Assembly (NCBI GenBank): GCA_965248435.1
Contig: OZ252100.1
Coordinates: 4,576,001 to 4,640,000 of the forward strand
Source of the DNA: Candidatus Latescibacterota bacterium
GTDB taxonomy: Bacteria > Latescibacterota > UBA2968 > GCA-2709665
DNA: 64,000 bases
Direction: 5' to 3'
The notes below the pieces were generated by a model, which worked only from the letters and a program-made list of their open reading frames with translations, did no database searches and was not told the origin of the DNA. The position numbers were made by a program, and so were the translations under genes. Positions 55,284 to 64,000 of this stretch are shown in pieces (within the stretch, counting starts at the first letter, position 1; each line of letters starts with the position of its first letter).

Positions 55284-55409
55284 AGGTGAGGACCCCAGCA
55301 TGCTCATTCGCCGAGGAGAGCAGTGGATTCCGGAGCTCGGCTCACGTCGGCCAGGTGGACACCATTCTTCCGGTTTGGCCGCGGTGTAGAAACCGATAAG
55401 GAGACCGTC

Positions 55410-56696
55410 TTGGAGCGATTCAGCAGCATTGCCTCCGCTGCTTTGATCGTGCTTCTAGTATGCAGCGTTGCGGTGTCCGCTGAGCCTGCGGCCGAGACGG
55501 TGACGGTTCAGCTCAAGTGGTCCCACCACTTCCAATTCGCAGGCTTCTACGCCGCCGTGGAGAAGGGCTTCTATGCCGAGGAAGGGCTGGAGGTCACACT
55601 CAGGGAACGAGATTCAGAGAAGAGCCACATCCAGTCGGTCCTCCATGGAGAAGCCCAGTACGGTGTGGCAGATGCCGGGCTGCTCTTGGACTATCTGCAG
55701 GGAGAGGACGTTGTCCTCCTCAAACAGATCTTTCAGCACTCGCCCCTGGTTCTGCTCTCACTGAAGAATTCGGGTATTGCGGCTGCGCACGATCTGGTGG
55801 GCCGGACGGTGATGGTGGATATCGAAGGTCGCAGCAGCGCCCCGATTCTGGCTATGCTGCTCAACACGATGGGCGACATTGGCCAGGTCCAGTTTGTGCC
55901 GCAGTCGTTCAGTCTGGAGGACCTGACCTCCGGCGGATTCGACCCTGATGCCGTGCGCTTCGATCCGGCGTCGGTCCTAGTAGTGGATGACGTGGAAGCC
56001 AACCGTCAACTGGTGAGCGCGTTCCTCTCGCCCTACGGTCTTGCCGTGATGGAAGCGGCAGACGGTGAGGAAGGTGTGGAGCAGACCCGGACGCATCGTC
56101 CGAACCTGGTTCTGATGGATATCCGCATGTCGGGGATGGACGGGCTGACCGCCACGCGTGTGCTGAAGGAAGATGGTGAGACAGCGGACATCCCGATCGT
56201 GGCCCTGACGGCGTCCGTGATGAAAGAGGACGAGGACGAGATCCGGGAAGGCTTCGACGGGTTCCTTCGGAAGCCTGTCAACCGTGCGGCGTTGATGGCT
56301 GAACTGGCGCGCTTCCTTCCCCACGAGATGAAGGAGACCCTCAGCCCGGAGCCTGCAGTGCCGACCGAAGAAGCGTGGGAGCCCGGACTCCTGGATGAGG
56401 CGTCGTTGACGAAGCTGACCGGTCTCGTGGAAGCGCTCGAGTCCGACGTTCTACCGGTCTGGGAGGGCGTTCGGGGAACCGCCAACGTGACGGCTGTGGA
56501 GGAGTTCGCGGAGCTGTTGGCGCGGGTGGTGGACGGGACGCTGTTCCCTCCGCTCCAGAGCTGGACGGAGAAGCTGAAGGGACAGGCGGCTGGCTTCCAA
56601 ATGGATCTCCTGCCGCAGACACTCGAGGAGTTTCCGAATCTGGTCGCCGATCTGAAGCAGATCGCGACGGCAGGCGCCCGGAAGCTTGAAGCATGA
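55410..56696 (+). CDS. NMT1/THI5-type sensor fragment fused directly to REC and a helical tail (internally deleted hybrid kinase)
   Basis: Signal peptide and VQLKWSHHFQFAGFYAAVEKGFYAEEGL, then an abrupt switch near 55935 to a REC module. No TM and no kinase core. Confidence 0.75.
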   Translation: MERFSSIASAALIVLLVCSVAVSAEPAAETVTVQLKWSHHFQFAGFYAAVEKGFYAEEGLEVTLRERDSEKSHIQSVLHGEAQYGVADAGLLLDYLQGEDVVLLKQIFQHSPLVLLSLKNSGIAAAHDLVGRTVMVDIEGRSSAPILAMLLNTMGDIGQVQFVPQSFSLEDLTSGGFDPDAVRFDPASVLVVDDVEANRQLVSAFLSPYGLAVMEAADGEEGVEQTRTHRPNLVLMDIRMSGMDGLTATRVLKEDGETADIPIVALTASVMKEDEDEIREGFDGFLRKPVNRAALMAELARFLPHEMKETLSPEPAVPTEEAWEPGLLDEASLTKLTGLVEALESDVLPVWEGVRGTANVTAVEEFAELLARVVDGTLFPPLQSWTEKLKGQAAGFQMDLLPQTLEEFPNLVADLKQIATAGARKLEA

Positions 56697-56818
56697 CCGG
56701 ACTTCCGAGTCGGCTCCGTCAACAGGATGCCGGTTTGACACAACCCAGCGAGTCTGTTTAACACTCTGGAGGAATGGGTAGGGTGAGGAACTTCGTGCCA
56801 ATACACAGAAACCTGCCG

Positions 56819-59800
56819 ATGAGCCTGTGCATCATTCTACGGCACCTGAGTCTTGCCTCGCTTGCGTTGCTAGGCACAAGGGGACTCGCCGATGCGCAGT
56901 CGCCGTCACCGGTCCAGGTGAAAGGCGCGTACGTTCTCAATTTCCTGAAGTACGTCGAATGGAAAGACGAGGGTTCGGTGTCTCGCTTTGTTGTGGGCAT
57001 GTACGGAGAGGACGAGGCACTCTACCGCGAGCTTTCCACGGCACTTCCCAAGATGAAGGCAAAACAGAAGGGAATCCAGGTCGTACAGGTGTCGGATATC
57101 GAGCAGGCGAAGTCGGTGCATCTGCTGATGGTGGCCGGGTCTGAAAACACCGACATCAGAGCGATCGCAAATGGCGTTCGCCGCACGAATACGCTGCTGG
57201 TGACAGACAACTGCGGCGACAAGCAGTCGATCATGATCAACCTCACCGCCTTCGGAGGGGATCGGATTGGGTTCGAAGTCAACAAACCCAACATCGTGTA
57301 CGAGGGGCTGAAACTATCTCCGGACATCCTGTTCCTGGGGGGTACCGAACTGGATGTGGCCGAGCTCTACCGCGAAATGGAGGCCTCCCTTCAGAATACA
57401 CGGGAAACGGTAGGGGTTCAGCAAGCCGAACTGGAGAGACAGCGAGACGAAATTGAGGAGCGAGGTCGAGAGATTGAGACTCAGAACGCCCGCCTGGCGA
57501 AACAGAACCGTGAGATCGAGGAGAAGCAAGCGTTGTTGGGTAGCCTTGAGAAGCGGCTCGCGGATGAACGTTCTGTGCTCAGAGCGAACCAGAGCCGAAT
57601 GGAGGCGTATGAATCTGAACTGAGGTCCAAGCTGAATACGCTGGCGGCGAGAGAGATCCAGGTGGAAACCCTGGCCGCTGAGATCAATGCCAACAGGGAG
57701 GTGCTTGAGAAGCAGAGGGGGCAGATTAGCGCCCAGGCGGAGCAGATCGAACAGCAGCAAGAGAACCTGGAGACACAGGACTCGACCATACAAAGACAGG
57801 AAGCGCTGCTACTGGGCGGAGGCATCATCCTGCTTCTGGTGATAACTCTGGGTGGGGTGATCTCCTGGGGCTACAGGCTTAACCGAAAGACTTCCGCAGC
57901 GCTCAGGCAGAGCGAGGCCGACTTCAGATCCCTCGTCCTCAACACTCCCGGGGTCGTCTACCGCTGTGCCCTGGATGAGCACTGGACCATGATGTACATG
58001 AGCGACCGCATCGAGGACCTTTCTGGTTATCCCAGCTCAGACTTCATCGGAAACGAAGCGCGTTCTTTCGCAAGCATCATTGCTCCTGAAGATGTGGAGA
58101 TGGTCGATCGCGTCGTCCAGGAAGGGGTCGAGCGGAGGCAGCCCTACATCATAGAGTATCGCATTCAACACCGGGATGGTTCTCTGCGATGGGTCTATGA
58201 ACAGGGAAGCGCCGTGTTCGAGGAGAAAGGGGATGTCAGTTATCTGGACGGTTTCATCATGGACATCACGGAGCGTAAGGAGAAGGATCGGTTTCTGCGG
58301 TTTGCGACGCACGCCATGGACAATAGCGCGGATATCGCGCTCTGGCTCGACGCTGATACTGCGCAGTTACGATTCGTCAACAAGGCTGCGTGCGAGCAGC
58401 TTGGGTATACCAAAGAAGAACTCCTCGAACTCACCATTCCCGACATCGACCCGTTGTTCCCCCAAGAGCGGTGGCCGGCATTCTCTAGTTCCCTCCGCGA
58501 ACAGGGCTTCATGCAGTTCGAGACGCAACAGCAAAGAAAAAACGGGGAGATCTATCCGGCCGAGGTGACGGTCAGTTCGGTGGACTTCGAACGGGTAACT
58601 TACTTCATATCCTTCTCCCGTGACATTACAGACCGCAAGAAGGCCGATGCAGAGCTTCTTGCCGCGAAAGAGGCGGCTGATGAGGCCAACAGCGCCAAGA
58701 GCATGTTTCTTGCCAACATGTCGCACGAGATCCGCACGCCCATGAACGCCGTGCTTGGATTCTCAGAAGTGCTGCGCACACTCGTCAAGGGAGAGCAGGA
58801 GAAGCAGTATCTGGATTCTATCCAGTCGAGCGGGAAGGCCTTGCTTGGATTGATCAACGACATCCTGGATCTGTCGAAGGTGGAGGCCGGCAAGCTCGAG
58901 CTGGAATACGCGGCCGTGGACGCGCCCGCGGTGTTCCAGGATATGGAGGCCGTGTTCGGCCAGCGCATGGACGAGAAAGGGCTCACCTTCATCCTCGATC
59001 TGGATCCGGACCTGCGTAAGGCGCTGATCCTGGACGAGGTGAGGCTGCGCCAGGTCCTGATCAACCTGATCGGCAACGCGATCAAGTTCACGGAGGAGGG
59101 GCACGTCCGGCTGGCCGCTGCGGCCGTCTCGGAACGAGAAACCGGCAGCCGGATGGATCTTATGATCTCAGTCGAGGATACGGGGATCGGGATCCCGGAG
59201 GATCAGCAGGGAAAGATCTTCGGGGCGTTCGAGCAGACGGTGGGACAGAGCCATATCCGCTTCGGAGGAACGGGTCTGGGGCTGGCGATCACCAAGAGAC
59301 TGGTCGAATTGATGGGCGGTGAGATTTCCGTCGAAAGCCAGGTGGGCAAGGGAAGCACGTTCCACATTCGGCTGAAACATGTGGCCGTCGCTTCGGTGGA
59401 CGATTTGGCAGAGACGGACACGGGCATAGACCCGGATGCCTTGCAGTTCGATCCAGCGTCGGTCTTAGTCGTGGATGACGTGGAAGCCAACCGTCAACTG
59501 GTGAGCGCGTTCCTCTCGCCCTACGGTCTTGCCGTGATGGAAGCGGCGGACGGTGAGGAAGGTGTGGAGCAGACCCGGGCGCATCGTCCGAACCTGGTTC
59601 TGATGGATATCCGCATGTCGGGGATGGACGGGCTGACCGCGACGCGTGTGCTGAAGGAAGATGGTGAGACAGCGGACATCCCGATCGTGGCCCTGACGGC
59701 ATCCGTGATGAAGGAGGACGAGGACGAGATCCGGGAGAGCTTCGACGGCTTCCTCCGGAAGCCTGTCAACCGTGCGGCATTGATGGCTGAGCTGGCGCGC

Positions 59801-60193
59801 TTCCTTCCGCACGAGACGGCGGCGTCGATCAGTCCGGAGCCTGCCGCGTCCCCAGCGGCAGAAGTGTGGCAGCCGGAGGATCTGGATGGAGAATCGCTCG
59901 CGAAGCTGTCCGCTCTGGTGGACGTGCTGGAGTCCGACGTTCGGCCGGTCTGGGAGGGCGTTCGGGGAACCGCCAACGTGTCGGCTGTGGAGGAGTTCGC
60001 GGAGCTGTTGGGGCGGGTGGTGGACGGGACGCTGTTCCCTCCGCTCCAGAGCTGGACGGAGAAGCTGAAGGGACAGGCGGGTACCTTTCAGATGGACCTC
60101 CTGCCGCAAACCCTCGAGGAGTTCCCGGATCTGGTCGAGAATCTGAAGCAGGTCACAACACACACGACGGCAAAGGAGAAGCACGAAGGATGA
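56819..60193 (+). CDS. YfiR/DUF4154-like + coiled coil + TM + 2 PAS hybrid histidine kinase with REC
   Basis: QVKGAYVLNFLKYVEW...FEVN...GLKLSP (YfiR-like), long Q/E/R heptads, TM, two PAS, FLANMSHEIRTPMN, GGTGLGL and REC LMDIRM. Confidence 0.9.
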   Translation: MSLCIILRHLSLASLALLGTRGLADAQSPSPVQVKGAYVLNFLKYVEWKDEGSVSRFVVGMYGEDEALYRELSTALPKMKAKQKGIQVVQVSDIEQAKSVHLLMVAGSENTDIRAIANGVRRTNTLLVTDNCGDKQSIMINLTAFGGDRIGFEVNKPNIVYEGLKLSPDILFLGGTELDVAELYREMEASLQNTRETVGVQQAELERQRDEIEERGREIETQNARLAKQNREIEEKQALLGSLEKRLADERSVLRANQSRMEAYESELRSKLNTLAAREIQVETLAAEINANREVLEKQRGQISAQAEQIEQQQENLETQDSTIQRQEALLLGGGIILLLVITLGGVISWGYRLNRKTSAALRQSEADFRSLVLNTPGVVYRCALDEHWTMMYMSDRIEDLSGYPSSDFIGNEARSFASIIAPEDVEMVDRVVQEGVERRQPYIIEYRIQHRDGSLRWVYEQGSAVFEEKGDVSYLDGFIMDITERKEKDRFLRFATHAMDNSADIALWLDADTAQLRFVNKAACEQLGYTKEELLELTIPDIDPLFPQERWPAFSSSLREQGFMQFETQQQRKNGEIYPAEVTVSSVDFERVTYFISFSRDITDRKKADAELLAAKEAADEANSAKSMFLANMSHEIRTPMNAVLGFSEVLRTLVKGEQEKQYLDSIQSSGKALLGLINDILDLSKVEAGKLELEYAAVDAPAVFQDMEAVFGQRMDEKGLTFILDLDPDLRKALILDEVRLRQVLINLIGNAIKFTEEGHVRLAAAAVSERETGSRMDLMISVEDTGIGIPEDQQGKIFGAFEQTVGQSHIRFGGTGLGLAITKRLVELMGGEISVESQVGKGSTFHIRLKHVAVASVDDLAETDTGIDPDALQFDPASVLVVDDVEANRQLVSAFLSPYGLAVMEAADGEEGVEQTRAHRPNLVLMDIRMSGMDGLTATRVLKEDGETADIPIVALTASVMKEDEDEIRESFDGFLRKPVNRAALMAELARFLPHETAASISPEPAASPAAEVWQPEDLDGESLAKLSALVDVLESDVRPVWEGVRGTANVSAVEEFAELLGRVVDGTLFPPLQSWTEKLKGQAGTFQMDLLPQTLEEFPDLVENLKQVTTHTTAKEKHEG

Positions 60194-60283: not shown

Positions 60284-63187
60284 GTGCAGACGCCCGAAAA
60301 ATCGATGATTGACATCCTGTGGATGCTGGTTGCAGCGGGTCTGGTGTTCCTGATGCAGGCGGGTTTCACGTGTCTGGAGTCCGGACTGACCCGGGCGAAG
60401 AACAGCATCAATGTGGCGGTCAAGAACCTGACCGACGTGACAATCTGTATCGTGCTGTTCTGGGCGTACGGATTCGCCCTGATGTTCGGGCAGAGCGCGG
60501 GTGGATGGATCGGGCTCACCGGCTTCTTTGCCCCAGTGGACGAAAGGACGGGTTGGCTGGGTGCGTTCTTTCTCTACGAAGCAGTCTTCTGTGGCACCGC
60601 CGTGACCATCATCTCCGGGGCTGTGGCGGAACGTATGCGATTCAAGGCCTACATTATCGTCGCCGTGGTTGTCTCGTCTCTGGTCTACCCGATCTACGGC
60701 CACTGGGCGTGGGGAGGAACCTTTCAGGGAACATCCGGTTGGCTCAAAGCCCTCGGCTTCGTCGACTTCGCGGGTTCGACCGTAGTCCACAGCCTTGGAG
60801 GCTGGATCGCCCTGGTCCTTGTGATCATCATCGGACCCCGGCGGGGTCGCTTCGGCCCGGACGGTCTGCCGCGGGAGATCGAGGGAGCCAACCTGTCGAT
60901 GTCGGTGCTGGGCGTACTAATCCTGTGGTTCGGCTGGTTCGGATTTAACGGCGGGGGTCTGTTCGGGATGAGCGAAAGGGTGCCTGGTATTCTGGCAAAC
61001 ACCTTCCTGGCGGGTGCCTCGGGTGCCATCGCCTCGCTGTCCCTTGGATGGTACGTCAAGGGACAGTCACAGGTTCGGGAGCTCATCAATGGCGTTCTGG
61101 CGGGACTCGTCGCGATCACGGCCAGCTGCCACGCCGTGAGTCCCAAGATGGCCGTACTGATTGGGGCGGTCGGCGGTGTGACGATGCTTGGGGTGAGCCA
61201 TCTGCTCGTCCGTCTTCGGGTTGACGACGCCGTAGACGCCGTGGGCGTCCACCTGGGGGCGGGGTTGTGGGGTACGCTGGCGGTCGGTTTATTCGGTGAC
61301 CTCGAACGTCTCGCCACGGGACTCACTCGCACCGAACAGATTGGCGTGCAGCTGCTCGGGGCGCTGGTCTGCGCCGTCTTAGCCTTTTGTTTCGGATCGA
61401 TCGTGTTCCGTCTGATCAACCGGTTCTACCCGTACCGCGTCACGCCCGAAGAAGAAGACCTCGGCCTCAATGTGTCCGAGCACGGTGCGGCTACGGCACT
61501 GCTCGACATGTATGAAGCGATGGACGAGCAGGCAGCGGCGGGCGACGTGTCGATGCGCCTTCCCGTGGACCCCTTCTCCGAGGCGGGCGGGATCGCGATG
61601 CACTACAACCGGGTGATGAGCGGGCTTGAGAAGACGCGGAAGGAGCTCATCAACGCGAAAGAGGCAGCCGAGCGAAGTGCGCGCGAGGCCGAGGCTGCCA
61701 ATCAGTCGAAGAGCGTCTTCCTTGCAAACGTGTCCCATGAAATCCGAACGCCGATGAATGCGATTCTGGGCTTCGCCGAGATCTTGAGCGGCCGCCTTCC
61801 TAACGAGCAGGATCGGGAGTACCTGGACTCAATCCAGGCGTCAGGGAAGTCGCTTCTCAGCATGATCAACGACATTCTCGACCTGTCCAAAGTCGAGGCC
61901 GGAAGGACTGAAGCCTTTCTCGCTCCGGTCGAGGCACATACCGTGCTGTGGGACATGGAGACCCTCTTCCGACCGGGGGCGGAAGAAAAGGGACTCGCCT
62001 TTCACGTCGAGATCGATGACGCGCTGCCCGAGGTGATGCTTCTGGACGAGGCGCTCCTCCGCCAGACGCTGCAGAACCTGATCGACAATGCGATCAAGTT
62101 CACGCACCAGGGCTACGTGAGGGTCCTGGCGAAGCCGGTCTTTGCTTCCGCTGACGACTCGCAGCTGGACCTGGTTCTAACGGTCGCCGACAGCGGCATC
62201 GGGATCGCGGAAGACCAGCGTGAAGAGATTTTCGGGACATTCAGCCAGCAGAGGGACCATGACGTGAACGTGTATAGGGGCGCCGGCCTCGGGCTGGCGA
62301 TCACCAAACGGACCGTGGAAGTGATGGGGGGCGAGATCAGGCTGACGAGCGAGGTCGGGAAAGGGAGCACGTTTACGGTCAAGATCGGAGACGTAAACGT
62401 TGCCGCTGTGCAGGATCTGGCTGCGCCGGACGAAGAGATCGATGCGAATGTCATCCGCTTTGGGCGATCGACCGTCCTTGTCGCGGACGATATCTCCGCC
62501 AATCGTCTTCTCGTGAAAGGTTACCTCGAAGAATCGCCCCTGACCGTCCTGGAAGCCGAGGATGGCTCAAAGGCGCTGGAGATGACCCGGAGGGAGCGGC
62601 CCGACCTCATCCTGATGGACATCAAGATGCCCGTACTTGACGGGTTCAAGGCCACGAGGATGCTCAAGGCGGATCCAGAACTCAGACAGATCCCTGTCAT
62701 CGCACTGACAGCGTCCGTGATGCGGGAATCAGAGGCCGAGGTCAGGGAGATCAGTGACGGCTATCTCCGAAAGCCCGTCAGTCGAGCGGACCTGATTCGC
62801 GAGCTGGTCAAGTACCTACCTCATTCATTAGATGTCGAGGAGCCCGACGCGCCCACCTCAACGCCGGAACCGGAGTCGGCGTGGTCAGGCGAGTCGCTGG
62901 ACGGGGCGACGATCGAGCGGTTGCGCAGTCTGGCGGAAGCGATTGATGCAGAACTGCACCCGGCCTGGGAAAGCGTACGAGCAGGGGCCAACGTGACGGC
63001 CGTGGAAGCCTTCGCAGATCAGGTCGAGTCGCTGATGGCGGGGTGCAGCTACCCTCCCCTGTCCGATTGGACGAAGGCGCTGAAGGCACAGGCCAGGACG
63101 TTTCAGGTGGATCTTCTTCCCCAGACACTCCACCGCTTCCCGGATCTCGTGGAGGAAATGCGGGCGTTGGGCGGAGGTGGTGCATAA
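60284..63187 (+). CDS. Ammonium transporter (Amt)-HAMP-like-histidine kinase-receiver fusion
   Basis: MQAGF..LESG..RAKN, ISGAVAER, DFAGSTVVH, WFGWFGFN, DDAVDAVGVH and EEEDLGLNVSEHG (Amt); FLANVSHEIRTPMN and GAGLGL (kinase); LMDIKMP (REC). Confidence 0.93.
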   Translation: MQTPEKSMIDILWMLVAAGLVFLMQAGFTCLESGLTRAKNSINVAVKNLTDVTICIVLFWAYGFALMFGQSAGGWIGLTGFFAPVDERTGWLGAFFLYEAVFCGTAVTIISGAVAERMRFKAYIIVAVVVSSLVYPIYGHWAWGGTFQGTSGWLKALGFVDFAGSTVVHSLGGWIALVLVIIIGPRRGRFGPDGLPREIEGANLSMSVLGVLILWFGWFGFNGGGLFGMSERVPGILANTFLAGASGAIASLSLGWYVKGQSQVRELINGVLAGLVAITASCHAVSPKMAVLIGAVGGVTMLGVSHLLVRLRVDDAVDAVGVHLGAGLWGTLAVGLFGDLERLATGLTRTEQIGVQLLGALVCAVLAFCFGSIVFRLINRFYPYRVTPEEEDLGLNVSEHGAATALLDMYEAMDEQAAAGDVSMRLPVDPFSEAGGIAMHYNRVMSGLEKTRKELINAKEAAERSAREAEAANQSKSVFLANVSHEIRTPMNAILGFAEILSGRLPNEQDREYLDSIQASGKSLLSMINDILDLSKVEAGRTEAFLAPVEAHTVLWDMETLFRPGAEEKGLAFHVEIDDALPEVMLLDEALLRQTLQNLIDNAIKFTHQGYVRVLAKPVFASADDSQLDLVLTVADSGIGIAEDQREEIFGTFSQQRDHDVNVYRGAGLGLAITKRTVEVMGGEIRLTSEVGKGSTFTVKIGDVNVAAVQDLAAPDEEIDANVIRFGRSTVLVADDISANRLLVKGYLEESPLTVLEAEDGSKALEMTRRERPDLILMDIKMPVLDGFKATRMLKADPELRQIPVIALTASVMRESEAEVREISDGYLRKPVSRADLIRELVKYLPHSLDVEEPDAPTSTPEPESAWSGESLDGATIERLRSLAEAIDAELHPAWESVRAGANVTAVEAFADQVESLMAGCSYPPLSDWTKALKAQARTFQVDLLPQTLHRFPDLVEEMRALGGGGA

Positions 63188-63216
63188 AGACGGAGCGTGA
63201 GGAGTCTGGAGCATCT

Positions 63217-64000
63217 GTGAAATCGAAAACGATAAAAAAATCAACAGTTAGTATCGCTTGCTTATTCATCCTGACAGATTTCATGCCTTCGTTGGCGGCA
63301 GAATCAGACGATTCACTCAAGGTGGATCAAATGTATAGTCTGAGCTTGGAACAACTGATGCAGGTCCGCGTTGTAACCGCCTCCAGGCGAACTCAAAGGA
63401 TTAGTGAGGCCCCCTCTATCATTTCAGCTTTTGGCCGGCAGGACATCGACAACATGTCGGTGACCTCCCTCATTGACGTGATTAAACACGCACCAGGCAT
63501 AGAAACGAGCATGGATCCCGATGGTCATTGGCGGGTCTCCATTCGCGGGGTGCGCAAAGATGGCAATATATTGCTGTTGATTGATGGTCAGCCCTTCAAT
63601 GACTTCTACGATGGGCGTGCACTGTTTGACTTGCCCACTGAATTTATCGATAGAATTGAAATTATCCGTGGGCCTGGCTCAGCCTTGTATGGCACCAATG
63701 CAGTGGCTGGCATTATTAATGTCTTTACCATACAAGAACAAAATAGAGCCAGCCTCAGTATTGGCAATAACACCACCTACAGAACAAGTTTCAGCCACCA
63801 CACAGAATTCGGCAATGAGGCCATCCTGTCGATTAGTGTTGGTGCCTCTGATACCGATGGCGCCAATGTCACCGATGACCAGGACTCTGCTGACGGCTTC
63901 GGTCTCGATACAGGCACCACCAACCGTCACAAAAGGGAACTCTTTTTAACCACTGCCTACAGCCAAAACAATCTCAAACTGTCATTAATGGGATTTAGAC
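63217..64000 (+). CDS. TonB-dependent receptor, N-terminal plug (runs off the window)
   Basis: Absent from the ORF track. Manual translation gives a signal peptide, SLSLEQLMQVRVVTASRRTQRISEAPS, SIRG, LLLIDG and IDRIEIIRGPGSALYGTNAVAGIINVFT. Confidence 0.9.
   Translation, partial: MKSKTIKKSTVSIACLFILTDFMPSLAAESDDSLKVDQMYSLSLEQLMQVRVVTASRRTQRISEAPSIISAFGRQDIDNMSVTSLIDVIKHAPGIETSMDPDGHWRVSIRGVRKDGNILLLIDGQPFNDFYDGRALFDLPTEFIDRIEIIRGPGSALYGTNAVAGIINVFTIQEQNRASLSIGNNTTYRTSFSHHTEFGNEAILSISVGASDTDGANVTDDQDSADGFGLDTGTTNRHKRELFLTTAYSQNNLKLSLMGFR

Follow-up and report, generated by a model that had tools for sequence, protein, structure and literature searches.

The stretch from 56819 to 57870 of the window (the whole 64,000-nucleotide stretch of Candidatus Latescibacterota DNA analyzed here, from contig OZ252100.1) is the 5' third of a forward-strand open reading frame (ORF), 56774/56819..60193, that encodes a hybrid histidine kinase whose YfiR-like sensor head stands on a long periplasmic stalk. 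Read from the ATG at 56819, from which its residues are numbered here, the protein is 1124 amino acids (aa) long. Pfam places a HisKA domain (E = 2e-20), a HATPase_c domain (E = 7.3e-30) and a receiver domain (E = 9.5e-22) in one chain, which identifies the product as a hybrid kinase. The assembly is confirmed from 56560 to 59500, where short-read contigs from four runs of one sample match it with 0 differences. The features of the gene are as follows, with the evidence for each in parentheses.

56819..56893, forward strand: signal peptide, residues 1-25, with cleavage predicted after ADA (hydropathy; the A-Q site is kept in homologs)
56915..57337, forward strand: DUF4154 head with the YfiR fold, residues 33-173 (Pfam; AlphaFold2 (AF2) and Foldseek; the best NCBIfam match is TOL_0243 YfiR-like, below its cut-off)
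57356..57805, forward strand: periplasmic stalk, a continuous helix of residues 180-329 with 20 in-phase heptads, Leu/Ile at position "a" and mostly Gln at position "d" (DSSP of the AF2 model; heptad profile; quantized lengths in the family)
57806..57874, forward strand: single transmembrane (TM) helix, residues 330-352, continuous with the stalk helix (hydropathy 2.65; the AF2 helix passes through)
57992..58633, forward strand: two cytoplasmic PAS domains, PAS_3 at residues 392-479 and PAS_9 at 516-605 (Pfam)
58694..59377, forward strand: kinase core, HisKA at residues 626-691 and HATPase_c at 739-853 (Pfam)
59462..59794, forward strand: receiver domain, residues 882-992 (Pfam)
59795..60190, forward strand: conserved C-terminal domain of about 120 aa, common to both flanking genes and to the paralog at locus L005 (BLASTP; DNA repeats)

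A preliminary description made from the sequence alone had read this part of the gene as a signal peptide, a YfiR-like domain, about 150 aa of heptads and a single TM helix, and hydropathy, Pfam, the AF2 model and the heptad profile agree with every one of these elements. The leader is hydrophobic (Kyte-Doolittle 1.74 over residues 1-19) and ends in GLADA|QSP. Besides the leader, the sole strongly hydrophobic stretch in the first 600 residues lies at about 330-352 (Kyte-Doolittle 2.65), and YRLNRK comes next. Since the TM helix is followed by this basic segment and by cytoplasmic PAS and kinase domains, the head and the coil up to residue 329 are periplasmic. This bears out the periplasmic placement of the coil proposed at first and rules against a cytoplasmic one.

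The head belongs to DUF4154 (PF13689, YfiR/HmsC-like), which matches residues 33-173 with E = 4.4e-24 and a score of 85.6 bits (cut-off 24.9). The AF2 model, which covers residues 25-370 and was built from a 106-sequence alignment, has a mean predicted local distance difference test score (pLDDT) of 91.1 and consists of an alpha/beta head followed by one helix. The top 12 PDB matches listed by Foldseek are all YfiR chains, with E values of 1e-8 to 4e-7 and template-modeling scores of 0.69-0.79 normalized to YfiR. Sequence search alone scarcely detects this relationship (phmmer against the PDB YfiR, E = 0.66); a profile search of the PDB with the family alignment A4 was dominated by kinase-domain matches and gave nothing informative for the head, and residues 1-370 have no match at E ≤ 1e-3 to NF053586, the canonical YfiR equivalog profile. 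With coil, TM helix and kinase in the same ORF, the head is not a stand-alone soluble protein of about 190 aa like canonical YfiR. The only cysteines in residues 1-370 are Cys4, in the signal peptide, and Cys132, which leaves a single Cys in the mature head; the two conserved cysteine pairs described for YfiR, Cys71-Cys110 and Cys145-Cys152 (PMC4655355), are thus absent from it.

In the AF2 model, residues 180-367 form one unbroken helix that runs through the TM segment with pLDDT mostly >90, and there is no proline within the stalk. One position per heptad (residues 191, 198 ... 324) is L/I/V/M/F in 86-100% of the 106 aligned members. The 20 heptads run without a phase break and remain in phase into the TM helix, and the only peaks in the periodogram are at 7 and 3.5 residues. 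Across the family alignment A4, position "a" of the coil core is Leu in 48% and Ile in 35%, and at position "d" Gln fills 44% of cells and Leu only 11%; such a Gln-rich core is unusually polar and probably marginally stable. By analogy, the coil would be a parallel dimer, because kinases and YfiR are dimers. An alpha helix rises by about 0.148 nm per residue, and the 150 helical residues of the stalk therefore amount to about 22 nm.

The length of the stalk varies in the family in steps of one heptad. It was measured first from the GGTExD motif at the head end to the start of the TM run, in a set of 161 proteins from which 25 without the motif as a regular expression and 7 short fragments without a TM segment were removed, leaving 129. 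Lengths of 148/149 residues occur in 19 of these proteins, 155/156 in 33, 162/163 in 32, 169/170 in 16 and 176/177 in 6, with a few stalks reaching up to 204/205. Most stalks thus measure 148-170 aa, and two neighboring residue classes that repeat every 7 residues account for 118 of the 129; freely varying lengths would put about 37 there. A second measure, between the alignment landmarks G175 and Q327, gives 152 ± 7n residues in 95 of 99 members, and in the other 4 there is a shift of 3/4 residues, of the kind that stutters in a coiled coil would give. Of the two measures only the TM-based one is independent, since the Gln used as a landmark recurs periodically itself. In MAFFT alignments the differences are single 7- or 14-residue indels at differing points along the stalk, and within this genome the stalk of the paralog at L005 has 156 residues to the 155 of the window kinase. 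By both measures the stalk is not freely variable in length, as the preliminary description requires, and its single-heptad steps argue for a straight coil sensitive to register rather than for a hairpin or a floppy or passive tether.

The head, stalk and TM helix travel together. A phmmer search of 1.84 billion cluster representatives with residues 1-370 returned 3365 matches at E ≤ 1e-3, 884 at E ≤ 1e-10 and 177 at E ≤ 1e-30, and the best 150 are mostly collinear with the query across residues 20-365. All 60 representatives scanned carry DUF4154 at the N terminus; their outputs are a kinase in 51, a SpoIIE phosphatase in 5 and nothing or PAS only in 4, with GGDEF in 0. The head-stalk-TM cassette is a widespread, portable sensor module. 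Its distribution is sporadic: it turned up in 5 of the 168 genomes from the window's phylum and in 5 of the 301 sampled from a second one. A homolog is also present in Thalassotalea insulae, a culturable non-pathogenic bacterium. A search for related loci with a 4-row alignment returned 4 genome loci and 17 metagenome loci.

At the window locus the stalked kinase is followed by two further genes on the same strand, in the order stalked kinase, Amt-kinase, receptor.

60284-63187, forward strand: fusion of an ammonium-transporter (Amt) domain with HisKA-HATPase-REC, 967 aa, located after the stalked kinase and before the receptor (Pfam)
63217..64000, forward strand: TonB-dependent receptor of the "LSLEELM" class, on a low-GC island and running past the window end; the full gene is L006:218-2341, 708 aa (Pfam Plug and barrel; N-terminal motif; GC 45.3%)

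The genome holds three DUF4154 loci and, in 5.67 Mb, 14 Plug matches, and at 3/3 of these loci a receptor lies within about 7 kb of DUF4154. At L005 the receptor is immediately upstream of the second stalked kinase, and at L004 the order is receptor, Amt-kinase, REC-HATPase, soluble DUF4154, CHASE8-HAMP kinase. These three receptors are set apart from the rest. Eleven of the 14 start with a carboxypeptidase-regulatory-like domain, and the only ones without it are the three neighbors of DUF4154. In those three the signal peptide is followed by an LSLxEL motif and then a TonB-box-like strand (LSLEQLMQVRVVTAS, LSLNELDKLKISSGA and PLSELVEIDVSLAS), whereas the motif occurs in 0/11 of the remaining receptors. 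The receptor at 63217 is the carrier of LSLEQLMQVRVVTAS; its Plug domain scores E = 9.9e-22 in Pfam, its reading frame is complete at 708 aa when followed past the window end, and it lies 3 kb downstream of the stalked kinase.

The same link recurs elsewhere. Among 21 distinct stalked loci, 15 have a receptor within 10 kb (the window, L005, L008, L009, L010, L030, L032, L033, L045, L046, L048, L071, L073, L074 and L076), and 10 of these have it directly upstream in the same orientation; L032 and L033 belong to one genus and are not independent. Those without a receptor are the L007 group, the L053 group, the L054/L057 group, L058, L072 and L075; L058 and L075 have little flanking DNA, and at L072 the nearest Plug is about 10.9 kb off. 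Receptors that adjoin DUF4154 in other genomes and have an intact N-terminus carry the LSLEELM motif, which is missing from a non-adjacent receptor in L037. Six loci with a soluble DUF4154 combine it with a receptor and a CHASE8-HAMP kinase. The strict order receptor, DUF4154, CHASE8 kinase is found at L035, L036, L037 and L040, and at L004 and L034 extra kinase genes stand between the receptor and the soluble DUF4154. At L039 and L041 the CHASE8 kinase is present with no receptor of the class adjoining.

Five more genomes contain 16 DUF4154 matches that score over the cut-off, and 13 of these have a Plug domain within 10 kb, against about 1.3 expected from Plug density. On a FastTree tree of 41 receptors, in which deep nodes are weak and several branches long, the label "adjacent" requires 2 changes against a mean of 9.7 when shuffled, and 0 of 500 shuffles were as low. 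Distances between heads correlate with those between their adjacent receptors (Mantel r = 0.44 over 18 pairs, with 0 of 5000 permutations as high; 0.52 minus the window pair), a correlation that is confounded, as shared ancestry can produce such an r. DUF4154 genes, stalked or soluble, are associated with a distinct LSLEELM class of receptors. The co-occurrence with TonB-dependent receptors that was anticipated at the outset is accordingly strong, and it is limited to this one class.

Two side observations concern individual loci of this set. Two stalked-kinase loci that lack a receptor (L054:1025-2704 and L057:8076-9791) have in common a Trp-halogenase-family gene upstream and an FkbM methyltransferase downstream. 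At L035 the receptor beside the soluble DUF4154 has an in-frame TAG inside its Plug match (G070:C1:5122330-5122647) and its ORF is split, and this receptor may be a pseudogene.

Several observations concern the neighborhood of the stalked kinase in the window. The gaps between kinase, Amt-kinase and receptor are 91 and 30 bp, and no terminator-like site was found in them. Two of the genome's three DUF4154 loci carry the Amt-HisKA-HATPase-REC fusion (at 60284-63187 in the window and at L004:3924-7040), and in each it directly adjoins the class receptor, on the upstream side in the window and on the downstream side in L004. The receptor at 63217 has no STN domain in a Pfam scan of its 766-aa ORF, which detected only Plug and barrel, and the window neighbors scanned include no sigma/anti-sigma genes, no CHASE8-HAMP-GGDEF cyclase and no OmpA-like lipoprotein. 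It lies on an island of about 3.2 kb (63200-64000 and beyond, L006:200-3300) with a GC content of 43-48% between flanks of 56-65%, together with a 260-aa gene that has a 5'-nucleotidase-C domain. By its composition this island was probably acquired horizontally. The best homologs of the receptor (35-53% identity) are labeled Bacteroidetes, Kangiellaceae and Pleionea; the other 13 receptors of the genome have GC contents of 53.7-65.3%.

A receiver followed by the C-terminal domain of about 120 aa ends three consecutive genes (regions compared: 55323-56696, 59429-60159 and 62441-63174). The copies in the first two are 96% and 86% identical in DNA and the third is 60% identical. The first of these genes, upstream of the stalked kinase, joins an NMT1-type periplasmic binding domain straight to the receiver and C-terminal domain without a kinase core, its 3' part being the 96% and 86% identical copy of the 3' end of the stalked kinase. 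It looks like the product of a recent recombination in a rearranged locus, and short-read contigs from the same four runs bridge the junction near 55940. Copies of the C-terminal domain lie at 59795-60190, 62750-63184, 56250-56693 and L005:7093-7450 (reverse strand), and BLASTP aligns it with the extreme C-terminus of the L005 paralog at 35% identity (E = 5e-16). With no Pfam or NCBIfam match, it counts as an unnamed domain found in hybrid kinases of this lineage. The idea that it is a pseudo-Hpt domain was rejected, given the lack of a Pfam match and its alignment to the region after the true Hpt of the L005 paralog. Downstream of the window, at L006:3436-9268, a REC-GAF response regulator is followed by a FapA-domain protein. 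The same pair lies downstream of DUF4154-kinase loci both in this genome and in two related ones (L032 and L033) and may form an output branch of the relay.

The reading that we prefer, and to which we give an even chance, is that the head docks directly on the receptor, the stalked gene being a fused, tethered form of a conserved three-part envelope signaling module. Unfused, the module is an operon that runs from the receptor gene to a soluble DUF4154 gene and on to a CHASE8-HAMP kinase gene, paralleling YfiB, YfiR and YfiN with the receptor in the place of YfiB and, in this soluble arrangement, the kinase in that of the cyclase; CHASE8 is one of the sensor domains that PMC8846402 lists for cyclases. 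The stalked form has lost this CHASE8 sensor, and its YfiR-like head is joined to the kinase's only TM helix by the coil of about 150 residues, whose length of about 22 nm would bring the head close to the inner side of the outer membrane. There the head, probably a dimer like YfiR, would most likely dock on the periplasmic face of the receptor, for which the conserved short helix just before the TonB-box-like strand is the candidate site. A change in docking would then pass through the heptad-phased coil to the TM helix, the PAS domains, the kinase and the receiver, and into a multi-kinase phosphorelay. In the YfiBNR system, YfiR is described as dimeric and as held at the outer membrane through sequestration by YfiB (PMC4655355). 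A head fixed to the TM helix could not relieve inhibition by being sequestered; any signal must travel along the coil. Signaling along the coil fits the strict heptad phasing, and docking of the head on the receptor is therefore favored. The reach to the outer membrane, the contact between head and receptor and the inward direction of the signal are all things that we infer.

A more specific version of this proposal seems to us possible but doubtful as a whole. In it, a rigid coil tuned in length to the width of the periplasm would let the kinase touch the N-terminal helix and TonB-box of the receptor and read its occupancy mechanically, with neither a sigma/anti-sigma pair nor a soluble relay; the Gln-rich core would make the stalk a switchable rod, and the same cassette would serve kinases and PP2C phosphatases across phyla.

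A number of points weigh against direct contact. The periplasm is generally 20-30 nm wide, a general figure rather than one for this organism, which makes the reach of a 22-nm coil uncertain, and Gln at 44% of "d" positions leaves the coil with a weak core. The gene neighborhood would be equally expected if the head sensed an imported substrate or if the kinase merely regulated the receptor, and 6 of the 21 stalked loci show no receptor in the DNA at hand. In the window itself, kinase and receptor are not directly adjacent, since the Amt-kinase gene stands between them. The receptor and the 5'-nucleotidase-C gene next to it have GC contents of 45.3% and 45.6%, to 56.6% for the genome; a search of 167 other genomes from the phylum gave no match to the receptor at E ≤ 1e-80; and at L030, the closest ortholog, with a head 77% identical, the receptor is only about 22% identical to that of the window. 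On these grounds the receptor at 63217 is probably a recent replacement and not a co-evolved partner. With receptors diverging in this way beside near-identical heads, either the interface must be generic to the class or partners have been swapped freely, and free swapping fits a co-regulation or ligand-sensing reading equally well. The preliminary description had offered this receptor as an example of an outer-membrane partner; it is a TonB-dependent receptor as described there, and one of the motif class, but a poor candidate for a partner that co-evolved with the kinase. The broader suggestion of the preliminary description, trans-envelope signaling without a sigma/anti-sigma pair, is made plausible by the topology, the conserved stalk length and the co-occurrence, and is partly supported.

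The strongest alternative, which we regard as unlikely though a serious contender, is that the head binds a small molecule imported by the adjoining receptor and the kinase controls the uptake genes, after the logic of PfeS/PfeA-type two-component control. The coil would then be a signaling helix whose length serves, for example, to hold the head past the peptidoglycan. Gene neighborhood alone cannot separate contact from a shared substrate, and very different receptors beside near-identical heads are easy to explain if no protein interface exists. This alternative does less well with the link to a single receptor class that has a conserved N-terminal periplasmic motif (3/3 against 0/11 in this genome). 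Nor is it evident what use a ligand sensor would have for a stalk about 22 nm long that is held at 148-170 residues in heptad steps, and the pairing of the soluble form with a CHASE8 kinase, as of YfiR with YfiN, follows the logic of a protein relay.

We consider it improbable that the head is a sensor of envelope geometry or stress, probing how far off the outer membrane or peptidoglycan is or what state it is in, or meeting a YfiB-like lipoprotein encoded elsewhere, with the receptor neighborhood a matter of co-regulation only. The stalk is indeed rigid and constrained in length; YfiB has been proposed to sense the distance between outer membrane and peptidoglycan (PMC4655355), and Rcs signaling is reported to depend on periplasm size (PMC5736177). 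Among the neighbors scanned in the three loci of this genome, however, there is no OmpA-like or YfiB-like gene, and the class-specific adjacency of receptors would be left unexplained. It is very improbable that the stalk folds back as a hairpin, or is cytoplasmic, so that the head sits at the inner membrane with no long reach: we found no support for this beyond the inability of an AF2 monomer model to exclude bending, and against it stand the signal peptide and single TM helix with basic residues after it, the unbroken, proline-free helix modeled with high confidence and the single-heptad length changes, which a two-armed hairpin could not tolerate in register.

The closest relatives of direct docking among known systems are YfiBNR and HmsCDE, in which YfiR is a periplasmic repressor, YfiN a CHASE8-HAMP-GGDEF cyclase and YfiB an outer-membrane lipoprotein. 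The head shares with YfiR its fold, Pfam family and periplasmic location; in both cases a YfiR-type domain lies between an outer-membrane protein and an inner-membrane signaling enzyme; and the soluble DUF4154 relatives in this and other genomes pair with CHASE8-HAMP sensors as YfiR does. Unlike soluble YfiR, the head is fused to its enzyme through a 150-residue coil. The output is a hybrid histidine kinase rather than a diguanylate cyclase (0 GGDEF among the 60 representatives), the outer-membrane neighbor is a TonB-dependent receptor rather than an OmpA-like lipoprotein, and the mature head has a single Cys in place of two Cys pairs and no match to NF053586.

A second point of comparison comes from NCBIfam, of which release 20 was searched. 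The best match of the head is NF053591 (TOL_0243 YfiR-like), at 75.1 bits against a cut-off of 125, which makes it related but not a member of the equivalog; the matches of the receptor include NF053590 (TOL_0244 TonB-dependent receptor), at 124.5 bits against a cut-off of 645. The two families take their names from adjacent locus tags and form a receptor and YfiR-like pair, so the pairing is already curated and the link is not wholly new. The statement in the preliminary description that YfiR is normally soluble accordingly holds for canonical YfiR but overlooked a YfiR-like family already paired with a receptor. Unlike the stalked kinase, the TOL_0243 model covers a soluble protein of 150 positions, without stalk, TM helix or kinase. 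The TOL_0244 protein is reported to rise sevenfold on the n-C28 alkane in PMC6304351, whose text on this protein does not mention the YfiR-like gene; the same paper cites OmpS of Alcanivorax dieselolei as an alkane-detecting receptor. Alkane sensing is thereby linked to one reported relative, TOL_0244, and to OmpS as cited there.

The proposed mechanism resembles FecA/FecR/FecI in that receptor occupancy would be relayed by a periplasm-spanning protein to a cytoplasmic regulator. Unlike FecA, the receptor here is without STN, the neighbors scanned hold no sigma/anti-sigma genes, and the relay would be a coiled-coil kinase. With the Rcs system, in which signaling from RcsF to IgaA is reported to need one partner that reaches across a periplasm of fixed width (PMC5736177), it would share a dependence on physical reach; the proteins are unrelated, and RcsF extends a disordered linker from the outer membrane whereas the stalk is a rigid coil that rises from the inner membrane. 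A stalked DUF4154 kinase, heptad quantization of its length, a receptor-DUF4154-kinase module or the mechanism proposed here was not found described in the literature searched, which left most subscription journals and supplements outside.

Even on a conservative view, a widespread unnamed sensor module merits a family definition, and the heptad quantization offers a ready experimental handle on stalk register. If direct docking holds, the stalked kinases would provide a natural test, readable from sequence, of the distance that a coiled coil can carry a conformational signal (here about 22 nm) and of how envelope width constrains signaling, and a function could be assigned to the large, little-studied LSLEELM class of TonB-dependent receptors. 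The stalked kinase is a variant within YfiBNR-like envelope signaling in which the stalked fusion itself is new, and if its head docks on the receptor, it would represent a third inward route for signals from outer-membrane receptors, beside the FecA-type sigma/anti-sigma systems and the soluble YfiR-type relays.

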